Shown: piece after piece, positions 1 through 41,089 of the stretch
Position numbering within the stretch: the stretch's first letter is position 1
Layout of the letters: the number at the start of each line of letters is the position of its first letter
Source: a virus
Lineage: Duplodnaviria > Heunggongvirae > Uroviricota > Caudoviricetes
IMG/VR virus record: IMGVR_UViG_2563366819_000008
Strand: one strand, 5' to 3'
Length of the DNA: 41,089 nt
Translations under genes and position numbers: made by a program
Notes under the pieces: generated by a model
The model's input: the letters and a program-made list of their open reading frames with translations, nothing else
The model's database searches: none
Told to the model about the DNA's origin: nothing

Positions 1-516
1 ATGGAATTTAAAAAATGTCTTCTGCCTGTGGCAATGTTAGCGTCATTCACTCTGGCAGGATGCCAGTCAAATGCTGATGATCATGCCGCCGATGTTTATC
101 AAACCGATCAACTGAATACCAAACAAGAAACTAAAACCGTTAATATTATTTCCATTCTTCCCGCAAAAGTTGCCGTAGACAACTCCCAAAATAAACGAAA
201 CGCACAAGCCTTCGGCGCGCTTATTGGTGCAGTCGCTGGCGGTGTTATTGGCCACAACGTCGGGTCTGGCAGCAATTCCGGAACGACGGCAGGTGCAGTT
301 GGCGGCGGAGCTGTTGGCGCGGCAGCGGGTTCTATGGTGAATGATAAAACCTTAGTGGAAGGTGTTTCTCTAACGTATAAGGAAGGCACCAAAGTGTATA
401 CCTCCACCCAGGTGGGTAAAGAGTGCCAGTTTACGACAGGTTTAGCCGTTGTTATTACCACGACGTATAACGAAACGCGTATTCAGCCAAATACCAAATG
501 TCCTGAAAAGAGCTAA
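1..516 (+). CDS. yfgH: Outer-membrane lipoprotein with glycine-zipper region (YfgH-like); host flank
   Basis: Signal peptide with lipobox LAGC; Gly/Ala-rich zipper GAVAGGVIGHNVGSG...; symbol is tentative, based on size and synteny with a 179-aa neighbour and a guaA 3' end. Confidence 0.5.
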   Translation: MEFKKCLLPVAMLASFTLAGCQSNADDHAADVYQTDQLNTKQETKTVNIISILPAKVAVDNSQNKRNAQAFGALIGAVAGGVIGHNVGSGSNSGTTAGAVGGGAVGAAAGSMVNDKTLVEGVSLTYKEGTKVYTSTQVGKECQFTTGLAVVITTTYNETRIQPNTKCPEKS

Positions 517-531
517 TGATCAGGAGGAGTC

Positions 532-1071
532 ATGAAGAAAGTTTTTCTTTGCGCCATCTTAGCCTCCTTAAGCTATCCGGCTATCGCCTCATCATTGCAG
601 GATCAACTCTCTGCTGTCGCAGAAGCGGAACAGCAAGGTAAAAATGAAGAGCAAAGGCAGCATGACGAATGGGTCGCGGAGCGCAACAGGGAAATCCAGC
701 AAGAGAAGCAACGTCGCGCAAACGCCCAGGCCGCCGCTAACAAAAGAGCGGCAACGGCAGCGGCAAATAAGAAAGCTCGTCAGGATAAACTGGACGCCGA
801 AGCCTCTGCGGACAAAAAACGCGATCAAAGTTATGAAGATGAGCTACGCAGCTTAGAGATTCAGAAACAAAAACTGGCGCTGGCGAAAGAAGAAGCCCGC
901 GTTAAGCGAGAAAACGAATTTATCGATCAGGAACTGAAGCACAAAGCTGCGCAAACCGATGTGGTGCAATCTGAAGCTGACGCAAACAGGAATATGACTG
1001 AGGGCGGTCGCGATCTGATGAAAAGCCTGGGCAAAGCAGAAGAGAACAAATCGGACAGCTGGTTTAACTAA
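532..1071 (+). CDS. yfgI: Secreted coiled-coil protein, 179 aa (YfgI-like); host flank
   Basis: N-terminal signal peptide; charged Q/E/K/R/A-rich body; RBS aggagg upstream; symbol tentative, from synteny and length only. Confidence 0.45.
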   Translation: MKKVFLCAILASLSYPAIASSLQDQLSAVAEAEQQGKNEEQRQHDEWVAERNREIQQEKQRRANAQAAANKRAATAAANKKARQDKLDAEASADKKRDQSYEDELRSLEIQKQKLALAKEEARVKRENEFIDQELKHKAAQTDVVQSEADANRNMTEGGRDLMKSLGKAEENKSDSWFN

Positions 1072-1110
1072 GCGATGTCAGTAACTTCAAGCCTATGATT
1101 CGTGAGTATA

Positions 1111-1142
1111 AAAAACCCTCTGTAGTAACAGAGGGTTTTGTT
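1111..1142. terminator. Bidirectional intrinsic terminator (A-run, CCCTCTG/CAGAGGG hairpin, T-run)
   Basis: aaaaaCCCTCTGtagtaaCAGAGGGttttg directly after the 532..1071 stop and before the guaA-like 3' end on the other strand. Confidence 0.6.
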
Positions 1143-1163
1143 CATTCATAGTGCAGGGTCAAA

Positions 1164-1178
1164 TCATTCCCACTCAAT
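1164..1178 (-). other. guaA 3'-terminal codons (Ile-Glu-Trp-Glu-stop) = probable left att core of the prophage
   Basis: Minus strand reads ATT GAG TGG GAA TGA; codons upstream no longer fit GuaA (in-frame stop two codons up), so only the core survives here. Confidence 0.5.
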
Positions 1179-1288
1179 TATTTACGATAACCATAACCAA
1201 TTGAGTGATAACATTTTTCCAAATCTCAATTTTTCCCGTACCGTTTTATATACCGTCACCGGAAATCAGTACCATGAAAAATGCCATG

Positions 1289-1771
1289 CTATCTGGTCAA
1301 AGTGTCGTACTGTTTTTCGCAGACTCTTCCGGCTTCGGCTGCCCGGTCAGCATACTCTGCCAGTTGTCTGTTTCTCTCGAGAGATTTGCTGAGCACGTCG
1401 GCAAGCAAAACTCCGGTGTCTGCGGCTGACGACCCAGCGCCGACAATGGCGTTATACTGCCTGAGCTGCTCACGGATGGCAAAGAGTTGTTGCTGCAACC
1501 GGCCAGCGCTAGCGGCAGCATCAAGAGCATCATTGCGCGCCTGGTCGATCCTCTGCTGAGCTTCACGTTCATTGGTCACTTTCTCCTGTTCGTAGTACTG
1601 ACGAACTTTGTCTTCTTCGGCTTTGCGGTCTTCTTCCGCCTGAGCATACCCGGCATCGTACTGGCGACTGCCGTGTATATTCCAGGCAACCACTCCTGAT
1701 ATGACCAGAACAGCAAGCACTGCCACGATAAGAAACTGTTTCCAGTATGCTTTTACGAATGCCCAGATCAT
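1289..1771 (-). CDS. Rz-like i-spanin
   Basis: N-terminal TM helix then coiled-coil periplasmic domain; directly downstream of endolysin; contains embedded lipoprotein ORF in another frame. Confidence 0.7.
1297..1572 (-). CDS. Rz1-like o-spanin (lipoprotein) embedded in Rz; start codon uncertain
   Basis: Signal peptide [13 protein letters not shown] with lipobox, Pro/Ser-rich short mature part; fully nested in the Rz gene. Confidence 0.55.
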   Translation of the reverse strand: MNVKLSRGSTRRAMMLLMLPLALAGCSNNSLPSVSSSGSITPLSALGRQPQTPEFCLPTCSANLSRETDNWQSMLTGQPKPEESAKNSTTL

Positions 1772-2397
1772 ACCGCCAGCACCTTACTGGCAGTGATGTA
1801 CCGCGCTCGCCGGTCGTCGATGCCGTTCCGGCCACCATTGATAATCAGAGTTACACGTGCAATATCGCCGGTATACTTCATGCATCCTTTGCTGGCGAAG
1901 AACCACGCCGCGCTACGAGCCGCATATTCGTCCTGCGCCAGCAGTTCAGGGCTCTCCAGCAGGTCAACCTTTAGACCGTTTCCGCAATCACGATAGTTAT
2001 TCAAACCGGTAATCTGGATAAGTCCGCGCCCTCGGTAATTCCAGCCATCACCAGGGGCATTGTTCCCCATGCGTTTGCTGTATACCAGATTTGCGATCGC
2101 GCGCTGGCGCTCAAGTGGCAATGGTGGTTCACCAGCACGGCGCCCCAGTGCATTAGCCTGCCCCTGAGTGAGACGCCCAGCCCGAACGAAGTTAGCCAGT
2201 CCGCTGACACTGTAGTTGAAATTCTCCTGCAACCTGGTGAAGCCCCCAGACTCATGCCCGACTTGAGCAATAAACATTGCCTGATCTTCTGCTTTGCTGA
2301 TACCAAACTCTTTCATCGCAGAAGTTATATGCGAGAACCAGCGTGCGGCCAGTGCCTCGCTGATACCAGCAGCTCGCTGGAATTGTTTAATCTCCAT
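1768..2397 (-). CDS. Endolysin, glycoside hydrolase family 19-like
   Basis: Motif [20 protein letters not shown] typical of GH19 phage lysozymes; start taken at internal MEIKQFQ (ATG at 2397), upstream ORF extension looks non-coding. Confidence 0.7.
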
Positions 2398-2695
2398 GTT
2401 TAGACCTCGATACTTTAAAAATTTGAACGACGTTACCGCGCGTTTTAATAACCGCAGCCAGCATGACAGCGTTGATAATGACCTCAGATAAATCCACAGC
2501 CATTGGCGTACGTAACCAGATTGCATAGGCGACTCGAACAGGAATACTGGCCGCAGCAACAATCAGGAAATAAGCAAGCCATCCTCCCCACCTTCGATGT
2601 TGAGAGCCGTTACGCCGGAATGTGACAACGCGAATTGCTATGCCAGTGCAAATAACTGCATTAGTGATAAGCAAAAAAAACTCATGCGTTACCAT
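2387..2695 (-). CDS. Small membrane protein, holin or antiholin candidate
   Basis: About 3 predicted TM helices; overlaps holin-like gene upstream and endolysin start downstream. Confidence 0.45.
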
Positions 2696-3086
2696 CGTCT
2701 TTTCTCCCCGGAATTAACTCGCGTGGATTATCGGAACGGTGATAGAGCCATATACCAATACGCACAGCGACAATTGCTGACACGAATGCGCCTGCAGAGA
2801 AAACAATCCCTTTTTCAAAAGAGTCCTGCGTGATGGTAGGGATCAGGCTGGCTATGCCGATAAGAATTGATGCTGCTGGTTTGTAAAAGAGAAGGCCGCA
2901 AAGAAAGCTGAGCATCGACAGGAGCACCCGGCGACGGATGGGGTACTCTACTGCAGAGGTAACAAAAATTACCGCCCCAGCCAAAGCCCCTAAAGCAACC
3001 TCCGGAGGGACACCTGCAATAACTGCAGCAAGAGAACCAAAACTAAGCAACTGATTTAATTGCTCACTTGTTACTTGAGCAGACAT
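2682..3086 (-). CDS. Holin-like multi-TM membrane protein
   Basis: 134 aa with 4-5 hydrophobic helices, first gene of the lysis cassette. Confidence 0.5.
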   Translation of the reverse strand: MSAQVTSEQLNQLLSFGSLAAVIAGVPPEVALGALAGAVIFVTSAVEYPIRRRVLLSMLSFLCGLLFYKPAASILIGIASLIPTITQDSFEKGIVFSAGAFVSAIVAVRIGIWLYHRSDNPRELIPGRKDDGNA

Positions 3087-3190
3087 ACTTTCTCCTGTTT
3101 ACTATCTATAAGCCAGTCAATTATTGATGACTAAACCCGCATAGTAAACCATATATGAATCATTATTGTTCCATATCATATATCTCAATA

Positions 3191-3216
3191 AAAGTACTAA
3201 TGAAAAGTACTAATGA
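3191..3216. repeat. Perfect tandem 13-bp direct repeat AAAGTACTAATGA x2
   Basis: Seen in the 320-bp non-coding gap between tailspike stop and holin start. Confidence 0.6.
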
Positions 3217-3405
3217 TTTTACAGAACGAGCCAGCAGAGTGGGGGCAGTTGTACAGGAACCATAGACTTAATTTTGTATTTAATAATGCTATGGTGTAAT
3301 AAACCTGAACATGTATTTAAAATACGTACTGATTCATGATAGAATTCAAAGATAACTTTTCACCAACTCCGTTTTTGATACCCGCAATATTTTGCGGGCT
3401 TTTTT

Positions 3406-6400
3406 TTAACGTTCTTCCAGAGACTGAACCCGCTCTTTTATCTTATCCATTTCTCTGCGCTGCCATGCTGCCTCGATATAGAATAAGAGATCAGGTCTGA
3501 CCCCCCATCTAGATCCTGCTGGCGTTATTTCAACGCGCTCAATGATGTCTTCTATTACCATCACTGGATTATCATCCTCATCAACAATGATGCTCCCGTC
3601 ATTATCAGTCAGCGGCATTTCCCTTTGGCCAGTAATGACGTCATCATATACTGCGGGATAATCGTCATAGCAAAGAAAGGCATAGCGGCATGTTGTGCTT
3701 TCTTCTTCCATGAGTCCGTGAGAAATAAGAACATCACGAAGTTGCTGCGCGATTACACCATGATGTATCCTCGCCCCTTCTTCCCCCTTTATAGCGACAG
3801 CGTTCAGCCATTTATAAGCGATATACCTGACGTCACCCCAGGCATCCAGCAATGCTTCGTCAGGAGAGACCGGCTCTGTCTTTAATGTTCCGTCACTGGT
3901 AACCACAGGATTGGAGCCAAGATAAACTGTCGAGAACCTGTTTCCCGGACCACCAAGAGCATTTACATTATCAAGATAAGGTTTAACATCTCCGTTCTCA
4001 AAAAGATGTTCGAGTGCGTTATATACCGCGCGACGTGGAGTACTGCTTCCGGAACCATGCAACGTTATCATTGCACCATCTGCTGAAGACGTTGTTTCAC
4101 CGCCGCTAACGATTAATCTCTGAGCGGTAACATCATCAGACGGTACTTTCTTCGCAATAATGGCGTAATTACCCTCAAGTTTGACTTCCGCGCGAACTTG
4201 TCCTGATGTACCTGCATGGACAGTCAGTGACTGGACGGCAACATCATCTGTGAAATCAACGGGTACAGGAACCGTCCTCACGCCTGACGTCGACATAAAA
4301 GTAGGAAGCGTTCTGTTAGGAGTGGCTCCGTAGACAAAATCCCTTGAAACAAATTCTTCCTGTTTAATTTTCACCCTGAAACAATACAAATCAGCCGGGT
4401 GACCATCGTGAACATAAGGATATTTTCTGTTGTTATCCCCTATGCTCCATGGGTTTAGAAAGTCTTCTCCACCGAAAATGTAGTACAGCCAGTTGTCTTT
4501 GATACAAACTGAACCAACACCAACCGCAGAGTTAACTATTCCGCCCTGATAAATCTGATCAGTAACATTAACCCACTCTACATTATCCAGACTCCACTCA
4601 TTGACGTTAACTCTGGTCATAAATGTTCTTGGATAATTTCCTGCATAACGGTTATCAGGCTCTCCTCCTTCCCACTCACCAAATGCGCGCTCACTGCCAA
4701 AAATAATCAGCTCATCGCCAACTTTGGCAAAAGGAAGGTTTGAGTGATGAACATTATTTGGGAAGCGAAGAGAATTCCATGATGTACCTAAATCAGAGCT
4801 TCTGTGCAATGAACTACCGGGTTGAGTACTTAATGTCCCCCTGGTCGTCAGATACAGAATGCCATCATAATATTTTACACATGGCTCAGATGCATTCGCC
4901 TCATATTCTGCAGGTATGCGTCTGCGAACAAAGCTACCAGGAGAACCGAAAGCATCAGAGAAATAGAGTATCCCAAGCTCGCGTGGACCAATATCACCAT
5001 TATGGTAGCCAACAGCAAAACTGTTATCGCTAATCGTCGCAAAACTGTGAATCTCAGTAACAGGAGTGCTTCCGTCAACAAAAGAAGGAATAGTTCCAAG
5101 ACTGGTTTTTCTCCATGGTGACGAGTGAAATGATGTACCAAAACTCCAGTATCTACCCTCGTTATTCTGATCCACATCCTGGGTATTTTGCGTCGTAACT
5201 GTAAAAGTATTTTTATCAATAACAGTAGTCACCGTCATATTCCCGGTAACACCTGTAACACCAGAGTTTGAGAAGTTGACAAAATCACCAGCAAATAATC
5301 CGTGATCAGTAATGCGAATATAAGCGACTTGCTGATTTGCTGCTTTCGTTATACCACCATAAACGCGAAGGCTGCGACTCATTGGGCGATCCCACAACTC
5401 TGCAACCTGCAGTTTATTTCCGCTCACGGTCCGCGTCTCAATTACAGCAAAAAGGCGATTTCTGACAACCCCCATACTCATGCAGTGATAGTTAACTGTG
5501 GGATAGTTTTCATGTAAATCTGTAAGCCATTCCGGCGTTGTCCAGGTCTTCCCGTCATCTCCTGAGCGAACCCATGCAACATGGAGGTTATTTACACCAT
5601 GGCGGTCTCCAGCCATAAAAGGCGCATAGATGACATTGTCATATACAAACGTTTTATCCTGCGTCCAGGCGTTGTACCACGGTGTATCTGTAATTTTAAA
5701 TAACTCTCCCTGGATAAAATCTTCAGAAGCATAAAAAAGAGGCTGGCCCGGTATTCTCTCAAATAAAAAACGAGCATTTTTAAATCGACTGACATCCGGA
5801 AGAGTTGATACTTTAAAAGTAAGCCCTAATCCGTCAATTTTATAACCTGGAGATGAGGCTTCAAGGCACGCGCTTATTGCAGTGGAGTCGTCATTTATAC
5901 CATCACCAACAGCTCCAAAATCTTTGGGGCTAATAGCATCACGCATTTTATCCTGGAACGTTCGGTACACAGCCCCAGAACCATACTGAATAAACCAACC
6001 AAAACCACCAACAACCCCGGCAATTGCAGCATCAACATAATTACGCATTGAGCGATTATTTACAGCGTCCTGCTCAAATGATGGATCTGCAAGGTTAGAA
6101 ATTTTGTTTTGCTTTGCATCGTAATATTTTGCAAGCAGAGAGGGCTTCATCAATGCACGTCTGAACCACCCAAAACATTGCTGGATCAGCATCGTCAGGT
6201 AGTCAAAGGCATCTTCATGCACTTCGGGGAAAAATTTTCCCTGATTGCGAAGGTCTGTCTCCTGCACTACATCAAGCACACGATCTATCGTAATTCGCCA
6301 TCCAGTAGCAAGCGGAGACGGAAGAACCACAGAACCGCCACTATAAGTGCCCGCCCCAGTTACCGTATAACCGGTATCCAGGACCAATTCTGTTACGTTC

Positions 6401-6525
6401 CCGTTCAGGTCAGACACCTGAACAACCAGGTCTGATTTTCTGAAAATTCGAAAAGTATACGGAAACGATGTCGTAACGCCGTTACCGGTGTATTCGTTGT
6501 GGTCAACTTCGGTTGAGACCGTCAT
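3406..6525 (-). CDS. Tailspike protein (1039 aa) with beta-helix glycosidase-like body and C-terminal intramolecular-chaperone domain
   Basis: N-terminal particle-binding type domain; DFGAVGDGINDDSTAI motif typical of pectate-lyase-fold tailspikes; C-terminal region resembling self-cleaving chaperone domains of endosialidase-type fibres. Confidence 0.8.
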   Translation of the reverse strand: MTVSTEVDHNEYTGNGVTTSFPYTFRIFRKSDLVVQVSDLNGNVTELVLDTGYTVTGAGTYSGGSVVLPSPLATGWRITIDRVLDVVQETDLRNQGKFFPEVHEDAFDYLTMLIQQCFGWFRRALMKPSLLAKYYDAKQNKISNLADPSFEQDAVNNRSMRNYVDAAIAGVVGGFGWFIQYGSGAVYRTFQDKMRDAISPKDFGAVGDGINDDSTAISACLEASSPGYKIDGLGLTFKVSTLPDVSRFKNARFLFERIPGQPLFYASEDFIQGELFKITDTPWYNAWTQDKTFVYDNVIYAPFMAGDRHGVNNLHVAWVRSGDDGKTWTTPEWLTDLHENYPTVNYHCMSMGVVRNRLFAVIETRTVSGNKLQVAELWDRPMSRSLRVYGGITKAANQQVAYIRITDHGLFAGDFVNFSNSGVTGVTGNMTVTTVIDKNTFTVTTQNTQDVDQNNEGRYWSFGTSFHSSPWRKTSLGTIPSFVDGSTPVTEIHSFATISDNSFAVGYHNGDIGPRELGILYFSDAFGSPGSFVRRRIPAEYEANASEPCVKYYDGILYLTTRGTLSTQPGSSLHRSSDLGTSWNSLRFPNNVHHSNLPFAKVGDELIIFGSERAFGEWEGGEPDNRYAGNYPRTFMTRVNVNEWSLDNVEWVNVTDQIYQGGIVNSAVGVGSVCIKDNWLYYIFGGEDFLNPWSIGDNNRKYPYVHDGHPADLYCFRVKIKQEEFVSRDFVYGATPNRTLPTFMSTSGVRTVPVPVDFTDDVAVQSLTVHAGTSGQVRAEVKLEGNYAIIAKKVPSDDVTAQRLIVSGGETTSSADGAMITLHGSGSSTPRRAVYNALEHLFENGDVKPYLDNVNALGGPGNRFSTVYLGSNPVVTSDGTLKTEPVSPDEALLDAWGDVRYIAYKWLNAVAIKGEEGARIHHGVIAQQLRDVLISHGLMEEESTTCRYAFLCYDDYPAVYDDVITGQREMPLTDNDGSIIVDEDDNPVMVIEDIIERVEITPAGSRWGVRPDLLFYIEAAWQRREMDKIKERVQSLEER

Positions 6526-8051: not shown

Positions 8052-8219
8052 ATGACAGCGTTGAAAAATCGTACTCAGCACAATGAACAAGCCAAGCAAT
8101 GCTGGGATGTCATTGGAAAAGTTATGCTTGGCCGCGCAAGCAAAGAGCGCGACAAGGATATGGTTTACCAGACAGGAACATCTTTCAGCGACTTCAAGGC
8201 GGCATTTCGCTCCAAATAG
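8052..8219 (+). CDS. Hypothetical small protein (55 aa)
   Basis: ATG with strong RBS aaaggagg; below the ORF-track size cutoff, translated by hand. Confidence 0.35.
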   Translation: MTALKNRTQHNEQAKQCWDVIGKVMLGRASKERDKDMVYQTGTSFSDFKAAFRSK

Positions 8220-37246: not shown

Positions 37247-37495
37247 ATGAAAGGTGCATTAGGTAAGAAGGAACTCCTAGCGGTGGTGCCACTGTCATGG
37301 AGCACTATCGACCGTATGGAGCGCGCAGGGGAATTTCCTAAACGCTGGTATATCACCGATAAACGCTGCGCATGGAACCGTGATGAAGTTGAGCGTTGGC
37401 TTGATGAACGTCAGGCAGCAAGCCCGGCAGAGTTCCAGGGTAAAAAACCTCCTGTTCAGCAACGTGTATATCGTCCTGTGAGCAACGCTGCATGA
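37247..37495 (+). CDS. AlpA-like excisionase/regulator
   Basis: Small HTH with W...DRMERAGEFPKRW...W..DEVERWL pattern. Confidence 0.55.
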   Translation: MKGALGKKELLAVVPLSWSTIDRMERAGEFPKRWYITDKRCAWNRDEVERWLDERQAASPAEFQGKKPPVQQRVYRPVSNAA

Positions 37496-37652: not shown

Positions 37653-37904
37653 ATGCGCAGCCATTCAAAGGTTGTTGCCGTTACTCCTGCGGCGATAGAG
37701 ATCGAAAAACGCGCGATTGAAAGAGAGAAAAAAGGGCAGTTCCGCATTGCCGCCCACCTTTGGCTTCAGTGTATGGATGTTGCTTCTGGTGATGTTGAGC
37801 GTGCAAGGATCGCGGTTCGAAGGGACCAATGTATCACAAAAGGTAACGGCCTTCGCCGTGGCGACTATAGCGGTATAGGATGTTGCGGGGTGGTTTATGA
37901 ATAA
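37653..37904 (+). CDS. PerC-family-like small regulator (tentative)
   Basis: Block FRIAAHLWLQCMD...ERARIAVRRDQC resembles the PerC/Pch family as recalled; start chosen at ATG with aagg RBS. Confidence 0.4.
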   Translation: MRSHSKVVAVTPAAIEIEKRAIEREKKGQFRIAAHLWLQCMDVASGDVERARIAVRRDQCITKGNGLRRGDYSGIGCCGVVYE

Positions 37905-39000
37905 TCAAAACAATAATGTAAAAGGTAATATCATGAGCAAGGTAGGCGATTATTTCTTTGAATTTCCCGCATCACGAGGAGCGCAGGGAAGTACTGTAAT
38001 ACTTATGATGACAGTACCAGCAAGAGCACTATCGAGAGTATTGGCAACCGACAATACGGGAAGTACCCTTGAACGTTCTCAACGTGAAATTAATCCAACC
38101 AGGGTAAAAAAGTTTTATCAATATTTAGTCAACGCTTACGAGAAAAAGGAACCATTTATTGTTCCACCATTGGTCGGAAATTGTAACTCAGAAATAGAGT
38201 TCCATGAGATTGGAAATACTAATGTCGGTTTAGCTAGATTTCCTATGGATGCAGAAATAAAATTATTTGATGGACAGCATCGTGCTGCAGGATTAGCTGA
38301 GTTCTGCCGTAATTATGGTGAAACAATTATGATTCCTCTTATGCTTACGCATAACCTTCCTTTGAAGGCGCGTCAGCAGTTCTTTTCTGACATTAATAAT
38401 AATGTTTCAAAACCATCTGCAGCAATTAATATGGCGTATGACGGACGAAACGATGTTGCCCAAGAAATGGTGTCTTTCCTGTCGCAACATGACACTTTTG
38501 CAGAAGTCACTGACTTCGAGCACAACGTTGTTCCGTCAAAGTCAAACATGTGGGTGAGTTTCAAAGCATTAAGTGATTCAACATCAAAATTTTGTATTCA
38601 TAATGGGAAAAAACTAGAAATTGGTAACATCGAGTCAGTATGGGAATCATGGTTATGTCTTACACAACTAGAAGCAATTCGCCATGGTACAAAGCAATCA
38701 GAATACAAAAGAGAATATATCCAGTTTCATGCAGTGATGATTAACGCTTTTGGCTATGCTGTTCAGCAAATGATGGTTAATCACTCAATAAAAGAAATAA
38801 TTTCAATGATTGAAACATTATGTGCAAATACTGACTTCGCAGAAAGAGAGAATTTTTTCCTAATGGATAATTGGGTTGGGATCTGCACGAAAGCAAGCCA
38901 GGGAAAACTATCAGTTATTGCCAATGTAGCAGCACAGAAAGCGGCAGCAAACAGGCTGATACAAGCCTTTACCAAAGGAAGTCTGGGAGCAGAACAATGA
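37897..39000 (+). CDS. DGQHR-domain (DndB-like, ParB-fold) protein
   Basis: Explicit FDGQHRAAGL motif; overlaps upstream stop and downstream start. Confidence 0.65.
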   Translation: MNNQNNNVKGNIMSKVGDYFFEFPASRGAQGSTVILMMTVPARALSRVLATDNTGSTLERSQREINPTRVKKFYQYLVNAYEKKEPFIVPPLVGNCNSEIEFHEIGNTNVGLARFPMDAEIKLFDGQHRAAGLAEFCRNYGETIMIPLMLTHNLPLKARQQFFSDINNNVSKPSAAINMAYDGRNDVAQEMVSFLSQHDTFAEVTDFEHNVVPSKSNMWVSFKALSDSTSKFCIHNGKKLEIGNIESVWESWLCLTQLEAIRHGTKQSEYKREYIQFHAVMINAFGYAVQQMMVNHSIKEIISMIETLCANTDFAERENFFLMDNWVGICTKASQGKLSVIANVAAQKAAANRLIQAFTKGSLGAEQ

Positions 39001-39838: not shown

Positions 39839-41089
39839 TTATTCCCCCGCCATCCACTTCTCAAACTTCGACGGGGAGAACGGAATCAGATCCGTATGCT
39901 CCCCGTCAATCCATGAATCAATCATATCGGCCCACTGCTGCAACATGTAGGCGCGCTGTCTGGCGTATTCCGCTTTGTTATATACGGCGCGCACACCTTT
40001 CTGCTCATGTGCCAGAGCCTTTTCAATCCAGTCTGAAGGATAACCAGCCTCATGCAACAACGTACTGGCTGTACGGCGCATATCATGTACAGTGAAGTCC
40101 TGAATATGCTCACCATCTTCATTTATTATTTTCACCGTTCTGTCGATCAGAGAGTTCAGCGCGGCATTAGATAATGGCTTCCGGAAATTGTAACGACCAG
40201 GAACCAGATATTCACTTCCACCAGCGCACATCTGCAACCCGACCAATATATCCTGTGCCTGTTTAGGCAGGTAAATAACGTGCGCCCGGCTTCCCTTCAT
40301 GCGGTCTGGAGGAATTGTCCATGTCCATTTTTTAAAATCTATTTCATCCCACGTTGCATTGGTGAATTCGCCCTTACGAACCATAGTGATAAGCACCAGT
40401 TTTAAAGCCATTTTCATAGTGCCCATAGCACCAATGGCATCCAGCGTGCGGAAGAACAGGCCAATTTCTTCTGGTGTCAGTGTTCGCTCTCGTGGTTTAA
40501 ATATGGCGATAGACGAAGGTTTAATGTCAGCCGCAGGATTAAACAAACCATGACCACGGTCATTGGCGTGACGGTATACGCTACTGATGATCTCCCTGGC
40601 CTGCACTGCTGTTGCCCGGCCACCGCGTTCGACAATCCGGTCACACAAATCACGAACCATCGATGTGGTAATTTCAGCCATCATTTTATTGCCAAGAACC
40701 GGAAGTATGTCACGGTCGATCACCGCCTGTTTCATTGCGCGGGTACTGTCAGCCAGGATGACGTGTTTCATATAACTGTCGGTATGTACCGCAAACGTCT
40801 CGGCACCACGAATCTTTTTGATACCGTCACGTTTAGCCGCAGCCGGTGACTGGCCTGCTTTAAGCAGCTTCTTTGCAGCAATCAGTTCTTCTCGCGCTTC
40901 TGCCAGGCTGATACCGTCACGCCCATACTGCCCGATTACCAGTGTTTCGCGGCGACCGTTGATACGGTAGTCATAGCGAAACGAGACCGTGCCTGACGTA
41001 AGCACAGCTACATACAGCCCGTCACGATCGGAGACCTTGTACAGTTTGTCCTGCGGCTTGAGGTTTTTTAATTTTGTATCGGTAAGCAC
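39839..41089 (-). CDS. Tyrosine integrase (P4-type); 5' end at window edge
   Basis: N-terminus LTDTKLKNLKP...DKLYKVSDRDGLYV; C-terminal catalytic region with conserved R/H/Y context; first codon in window is GTG. Confidence 0.85.
   Translation of the reverse strand: MLTDTKLKNLKPQDKLYKVSDRDGLYVAVLTSGTVSFRYDYRINGRRETLVIGQYGRDGISLAEAREELIAAKKLLKAGQSPAAAKRDGIKKIRGAETFAVHTDSYMKHVILADSTRAMKQAVIDRDILPVLGNKMMAEITTSMVRDLCDRIVERGGRATAVQAREIISSVYRHANDRGHGLFNPAADIKPSSIAIFKPRERTLTPEEIGLFFRTLDAIGAMGTMKMALKLVLITMVRKGEFTNATWDEIDFKKWTWTIPPDRMKGSRAHVIYLPKQAQDILVGLQMCAGGSEYLVPGRYNFRKPLSNAALNSLIDRTVKIINEDGEHIQDFTVHDMRRTASTLLHEAGYPSDWIEKALAHEQKGVRAVYNKAEYARQRAYMLQQWADMIDSWIDGEHTDLIPFSPSKFEKWMAGE

Follow-up and report, generated by a model that had tools for sequence, protein, structure and literature searches.

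At what point in this DNA does the bacterial chromosome give way to the phage, and what became of the bacterial gene at the boundary? The window, by which we mean the whole stretch of 41,089 nucleotides analysed here (IMG/VR record IMGVR_UViG_2563366819_000008), opens with host genes and runs on into phage genes. An earlier note, made from the letters alone, placed the left junction of a prophage at 1105-1291, at the 3' end of guaA. We find that 1105-1291 is almost certainly the integrase-distal junction of a full-length (~40.1 kb) prophage of the epsilon15/phiV10 type, integrated at the 3' end of E. coli guaA.

The host flank and the stranded guaA tail

The left end of the window is host DNA. 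The gene yfgH (1-516, plus strand), encoding a glycine-zipper outer-membrane lipoprotein, is followed by yfgI (532-1071, plus strand), encoding a DUF5384 protein. Both are annotated in RefSeq at the matching loci L001 and L002, and both have Pfam matches (Rick_17kDa_Anti / Gly-zipper for YfgH; DUF5384, E = 1.8e-61, for YfgI). YfgH is the reference protein except for its called start, and YfgI is identical to that of L002 at 178 of 180 positions, the stop counted. Annotation, protein identity and Pfam matches thus establish the flank as yfgH and yfgI homologues, as the note had supposed. The same two genes appear in a public phage record, that of TL-2011b (NC_019445, L009), where the deposited genome includes host flank at 494-1564; both are entered there as genes of the phage, yfgH under the name 'DNA methyltransferase'. 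These entries are an annotation artefact.

Beyond yfgI the plus strand at 1164-1178 reads TCATTCCCACTCAAT. Its reverse complement, ATTGAGTGGGAATGA (ATT GAG TGG GAA TGA), encodes I-E-W-E-stop, and the earlier identification of this string on the minus strand as the Ile-Glu-Trp-Glu-stop tail of GMP synthase is correct to the base. Translation of the same frame further upstream gives ...LWLS*IIEWE* in the window, against ...KPPATIEWE* at the C-terminus of uninterrupted guaA. It had been noted that the upstream codons do not continue the gene, and a TAA stop indeed stands in frame two codons upstream of I-E-W-E-stop, indicating that the guaA body is absent here. The string at 1164-1178 (minus strand) is accordingly a duplicated guaA tail, I-E-W-E and stop, with no gene body attached.

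The att core and its four contexts

To delimit the junction from the host side, a query of 601 nt across it was searched against 5426 complete E. coli genomes. The query matched 5412 of them, at the yfgI-guaA locus. In the great majority the alignment is unbroken over yfgI and the intergenic terminator and ends at query position 279, which is window position 1178, and at this position the annotation of the matched genomes switches from yfgI to guaA. In 363 genomes, as in the window, the alignment runs on into the Rz-like gene of the phage. Alignment to the uninterrupted yfgI-guaA locus therefore ends host homology at 1178. From the phage side, window 1100-5000 was searched against a phage database. 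Homology to free phages begins at query 62-63, corresponding to window 1161-1162, in ZX5 (99.3% identical), phiV10 (89.7%), epsilon15 (82% at this, the junction end of the window) and many others.

The overlap between the end of host homology (1178) and the start of phage homology (1162) defines a 17-bp att core, AATCATTCCCACTCAAT (1162-1178), made up of the last four guaA codons, the stop codon and the two bases that follow it. Since host and phage homology overlap there, strand exchange took place within 1162-1178, showing that recombination occurred within the 17 shared bases. The core is present as a single copy in the window, even with three mismatches allowed. The same endpoints bear on another reading, in which I-E-W-E-stop is a chance match of 15 nucleotides and there is no att site. 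Nothing beyond the shortness of the string speaks for it. The string is exactly where an unbroken alignment to the unoccupied locus stops, in more than 5000 genomes, and it is where homology to free-phage attP starts; the host and phage alignment endpoints refute a chance match.

We then compared the four kinds of attachment site in an alignment anchored on the core, which included the unoccupied locus L002, the window junction, the int-side junctions of CE10, AZ162 and TCM3e1, and the attP of the free phages ZX5, phiV10, EC.W1-9, epsilon15, SPN1S, PAT1 and Klebsiella phage Kp4865-1. The identical 17-bp core stands in attB, attL and attR and in the attP of ZX5, phiV10, EC.W1-9 and epsilon15. 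In attB the order is yfgI terminator, core, guaA body; in attP it is int, a 190-bp arm, core, a 110-bp arm, Rz. The window junction reads yfgI terminator, core, 110-bp arm, Rz, and the opposite junction in lysogens reads int, 190-bp arm, core, guaA body. The alignment thus shows the expected arm swaps, its left side collinear with the unoccupied locus and its right side with free-phage attP. That an att core had been duplicated by integration into the guaA 3' end, as the note proposed, is borne out by the presence of the same core in attB, attL, attR and attP. Just left of the core, at 1159-1161, the host arm reads GGGTCAAATC against GGGTTCAAATC in unoccupied L002; this one-T difference is common to the lysogen TCM3e1 and is probably a strain polymorphism.

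We propose that the tyrosine integrase recombines the phage and bacterial sites within the shared 17 bp, and that exchange within the core would leave one copy at each end of the prophage. The copy at 1162-1178 has the yfgI terminator on its left and the lysis-side attP arm on its right; joined to the phage arm in this way, it carries the orphan I-E-W-E-stop. The other copy would lie ~190 bp beyond the right end of the window, still joined to the guaA body, which would leave guaA intact.

The junction is a member of an att system that is already known and experimentally characterised, the integration of Uetakevirus phages at the guaA 3' end. The temperate K1-specific Uetakevirus vB_EcoP_ZX5 (MW722083) was isolated on K1 E. 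coli; its core, attgagtgggaatgatt, was mapped 190 bp from the int 5' end, at the guaA 3' end, its attB, attL and attR were amplified by PCR and Sanger sequenced, and its lysogens were spontaneously induced (PMC9782041). The core published there for ZX5, phiV10 and epsilon15 is the reverse complement of the window core, and it is because ZX5 integration at this core has been published that we count the junction as known. Likewise, guaA is given as the insertion site of the related prophage TL-2011b (PMC3293862). An integrase of this type is carried by 554 of the 5426 complete E. coli genomes (~10%); with the same junction in 363 genomes, the guaA site is a common and well-understood one. What the analysis adds is the left boundary of this prophage, fixed at 1162-1178, the intactness of guaA, and the identification of the element as a relative of ZX5 directed at the K1 capsule, all of little importance beyond correct annotation.

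The arrangement resembles integration into gene 3' ends by P4- and lambda-type integrases, in that an arm-binding integrase adjoins attP, a short core overlaps the 3' end, the target gene stays intact, and repeated arm motifs accompany IHF-like sites. The targets of such integrases are classically tRNA genes. Unlike in the classical case, the target here is the protein-coding guaA, and phage and host share two separate pieces of homology, the 17-bp core and a 27-nt copy of a terminator.

In other E. coli genomes, different elements share the guaA 3' end as a hot spot. The genomic island GIsul2 (PMC9376610) and the islands at loci L016 and L017 all use this chromosomal site, with cores that are similar or variant, but they are non-phage elements with different cargo. 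At L016, a type III restriction-modification island stands at the guaA 3' end with the core variant TCATTCCCACTCCAT (2765-2779); at L017, a DUF262 island and a Uetakevirus prophage form a tandem joined by the hybrid core TCACTCCCACTCAAT (2501-2515).

Arms, repeated motifs and terminators

To the right of the core lies the integrase-distal (lysis-side) attP arm (1179-1288). All but one of its 110 positions match the attP of ZX5, and it is collinear with the arms of phiV10, EC.W1-9, epsilon15, SPN1S, PAT1 and Kp4865-1. An AT-rich stretch at 1172-1212, detected by motif scans, holds GATAACC (1186-1192), ATAACC (1193-1198) and GATAAC (1207-1212). The GATAACC-type repeats that the note had seen at about 1185-1215 are therefore present, as three copies within 1186-1212; in the whole window GATAACC occurs 10 times, with 3.3 occurrences expected.

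The note suggested that these repeats may be integrase arm sites. Three ATAAC-containing copies within 27 bp do adjoin the core, and CATAAC and TAACA are partly conserved across the phage family. However, the first copy is changed in phiV10 (GGCAACC) and EC.W1-9 (GGATACC), and also in epsilon15. Arm-type sites are normally present in both attP arms, but neither GATAAC nor GTTATC was found in the 190-bp integrase-proximal arm, the sequences of which were read directly. The stretch furthermore overlaps three one-mismatch matches to the IHF consensus WATCAANNNNTTR, at 1172-1184 (plus strand), 1194-1206 and 1198-1210 (both minus strand), so that 3 of the 44 such matches in the window fall within 40 bp here, and the RefSeq record of epsilon15 annotates two IHF sites at the homologous place. 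Moreover, it is a different motif, ATACCGTCAC, that is repeated in both arms and invariant. Poorly conserved, absent from the other arm and coincident with IHF-like matches, the GATAACC repeats are very unlikely to be arm-type sites, and this part of the earlier account is not supported; judging by motifs and annotation, 1172-1212 is probably a region bound by a bending protein instead. We also considered a 9-bp inverted repeat, CACTCAATT (1171-1179) and AATTGAGTG (1199-1207), as a pair of core-type Int sites, and rejected it because its 19-bp spacing is too wide for the overlap region of a tyrosine recombinase and because its right half is only partly conserved in epsilon15.

Candidate Int arm-type sites, picked out by conservation and repetition, lie at 1238-1262 (plus strand), where GTACCGTT (1238-1245) and ATACCGTCAC (1250-1259) stand in tandem. 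The block TACCGTTTTATATACCGTCACCGG (1239-1262) is invariant across phages of E. coli, Salmonella and Klebsiella, whereas its neighbours diverge. The window has four exact copies of ATACCGTCAC, confined to the ends of the prophage (1250-1259, 40568-40577, 40821-40830 and 40911-40920), against a chance expectation that we ourselves estimate at ~0.08, and more copies of this type occur in the integrase-proximal arm, just outside the window. In the RefSeq record of epsilon15 the equivalent of 1238-1262 is an 'integrase' protein_bind feature, and four such motifs are labelled integrase sites. Repeats of the ATACCGTCAC type appear to be much better arm-site candidates than GATAACC.

Motifs of the ATACCG type also recur within the 5' part of int, between 40778 and 40920 (40778-40791, 40821-40830 and 40911-40920); the copy at 40568-40577 is less conserved and falls outside this span. 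In a codon alignment of int from 7 phages, only 26% of third codon positions are invariant, and of the four longest runs of invariant nucleotides, three (14, 12 and 11 nt) hold ATACCG-type motifs. Their positions relative to the core are conserved, and the density of TACCG is 12.5 per kb in the att-proximal 720 bp as against 2.6 per kb overall. Since the motifs lie in the longest invariant runs, selection at the DNA level is suggested, for example through Int binding or autoregulation, and the motifs are probably extra Int-binding or autoregulatory sites.

Between yfgI and the core, at 1110-1142, is a host bidirectional intrinsic terminator, unchanged in the unoccupied locus. Its stem is formed by CCCTCTGT (1116-1123) and ACAGAGGG (1128-1135) around the loop AGTA; an A-run and a T-run border the hairpin, and the fold energies are -22.8 kcal/mol on the plus strand (z = -8.3) and -18.2 kcal/mol on the minus strand (z = -5.6). 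A simple consensus scan for promoters and terminators over 900-1500 returned nothing; we set this result aside because folding shows a very stable bidirectional hairpin at 1110-1142. The terminator serves yfgI, and it also served guaA until the phage integrated.

The integrase-proximal arm, just outside the window (L005, 5205-5262), contains AAAAACCCTCTGTAAAAACAGAGGGTT, which is identical to the host terminator 1111-1137 at 25 of 27 positions; no shuffle out of 2000 scored as high, and in epsilon15 the resemblance continues farther upstream. This arm copy folds as a terminator in the guaA-to-int direction and is followed by UUUUUGUUUU, and guaA and int are co-directional. From this layout we infer a terminator swap on integration. 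The phage copy would replace the guaA terminator, coming to stand between guaBA transcription and int and shielding int from read-through, and in the lysogen the host copy at 1110-1142 would terminate the leftward phage lysis operon.

If the terminator copy and the int motifs are both functional, the attachment site may extend beyond a 17-bp core and its two short arms, the ATACCG motifs reaching ~460 bp from the core into int. We hold this only tentatively and think it rather improbable. Were it true, two equivalent terminators would be swapped, with guaA and the lysis operon each keeping one; int would come next after the guaBA operon, which is regulated by growth rate, with one terminator in between and with Int controlling its own gene, and integrase expression could be coupled to host purine metabolism. 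Two minor points may merit a specialist look: the copy of the terminator in attP, and the Int-type motifs conserved within int.

The integrase end, guaA and the extent of the prophage

The window ends on the start codon of the integrase gene (39839-41089, minus strand; 416 aa). The product matches Phage_integrase (PF00589, 70.9 bits, cutoff 27.1), Arm-DNA-bind_3 (PF13356, 72.2 bits, cutoff 27) and Phage_int_M (PF22022, 46.1 bits), all three above threshold, indicating a P4-type tyrosine integrase with an arm-binding domain; the box motifs ...TMVRKGEF... and HDMRRT...LAHEQKGVRAVY were seen by eye. A small HTH protein of the AlpA family (37247-37495, plus strand; Phage_AlpA, 24.2 bits against a cutoff of 21) is a candidate excisionase or directionality factor. 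In the scheme that we favour, Int would bind ATACCGTCAC-type repeats, both those of the two arms and those within the 5' part of its own gene, the DNA would be bent at the IHF-like sites adjoining the core, and the AlpA-like protein would act in excision. We infer these accessory roles of Int, IHF and AlpA binding from motifs, conservation and annotation.

As the window stops at position 41089, on the int start codon, its own right junction falls outside the sequence read, and we turned to relatives: CE10, AZ162, TCM3e1, eight contigs (L018-L025) with an identical 416-aa integrase, and the metagenome scaffold L026. In CE10, AZ162 and TCM3e1 the order is xseA-guaB-guaA, then 192 bp, then int, and in all eight of the contigs among the matches listed the identical integrase likewise has a 525-aa guaA 192 bp away. 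The closest relative of the right end is L026, which agrees with the last 8.2 kb of the window at 8138 of 8193 bases (99.3%), has the same rare DndB insertion, and beyond int has the arm, the core and then guaA. In every related lysogen checked, int is followed by the 190-bp phage arm, a second core and an intact 525-aa guaA; the note had expected the intact gene and the second core copy beyond the integrase, and with the window ending at the int start this is what the relatives contain. GuaA (525 aa) of the lysogen CE10 is identical to that of a non-lysogen, which shows that guaA is not disrupted by the prophage.

With its right junction placed as in L026, the prophage would measure ~40.1 kb; free relatives measure 39.1-39.9 kb. 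It is collinear with phiv142-3, HEMP4, phiV10, PAS61 and ZX5, at 96-98% identity over 66-83% of its length, and the order int, attP, Rz, endolysin, holin, tailspike is that of phiV10, epsilon15 and ZX5. Among complete E. coli genomes, the best match to 21 kb of the window has 87% coverage at ~97% identity. By its gene order and collinearity, the element is classed as a prophage of Uetakevirus, the epsilon15-like podophages.

The junction might instead belong to a decayed, cryptic remnant or to a composite tandem array that has lost the ability to excise, the att site being only a scar. Other elements do occupy the guaA site, as at L016 and L017, sometimes in tandem, as at L017, and the right junction of this prophage lies outside the window. 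Against this, the left phage arm directly adjoins yfgI and the core is perfect; the length is close to that of free relatives; the integrase, lysis cassette, tailspike and structural genes are intact and collinear with free phages; and the nearest relative, L026, leads directly into guaA. Spontaneous induction from lysogens has, moreover, been described for a phage that matches this end at 99.3% identity (PMC9782041). We consider a remnant or array unlikely and retain the full-length prophage.

At the left end, the first phage gene past the junction is the last gene of the lysis cassette, encoding an Rz-like spanin (1289-1771, minus strand; DUF2514, E = 1.7e-43), as annotated in phiV10 and epsilon15. 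In another frame within it, the ORF list has a 91-aa Rz1-like lipoprotein (1297-1572, minus strand) with the lipobox LALAGC. Such embedding is the usual arrangement of an Rz1-type o-spanin, and phiV10 and epsilon15 are annotated in the same way. The tailspike (3406-6525, minus strand; 1039 aa) has, by Pfam, the full set of endosialidase domains and a C-terminal intramolecular chaperone; given this domain set, the prophage is predicted to target the K1 polysialic-acid capsule, like ZX5.

From core through tailspike (1162-5000) the window is 99.3% identical to ZX5, with which it shares the 17-bp core, the integrase-distal arm but for one base, the length and position of the integrase, and the endosialidase-type tailspike. 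Unlike in this region, the relationship is mosaic elsewhere, and ZX5 covers only 66-69% of the rest of the window. With the Uetakevirus type members phiV10, of E. coli O157:H7, and epsilon15, of Salmonella, the window has in common the layout of int, attP and lysis cassette as well as the core, and the ATACCGTCAC repeats, the terminator of the int-proximal arm and the IHF-like region are conserved in both. They differ from it in having other tailspikes and, between tailspike and holin, O-antigen-modifying genes that are absent from the window.

The window also carries, between a PerC-like gene and an MT-A70 methyltransferase gene, an ORF of 367 aa with a DndB/DGQHR domain (37897-39000, plus strand; Pfam DndB, E = 4.5e-46). 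Among the related int-proximal modules examined, the ORF was found neither in CE10 or AZ162 nor in the eight contigs with the identical integrase, and just 3 contigs were found to encode the exact protein. The gene may represent cargo for defence or anti-defence.
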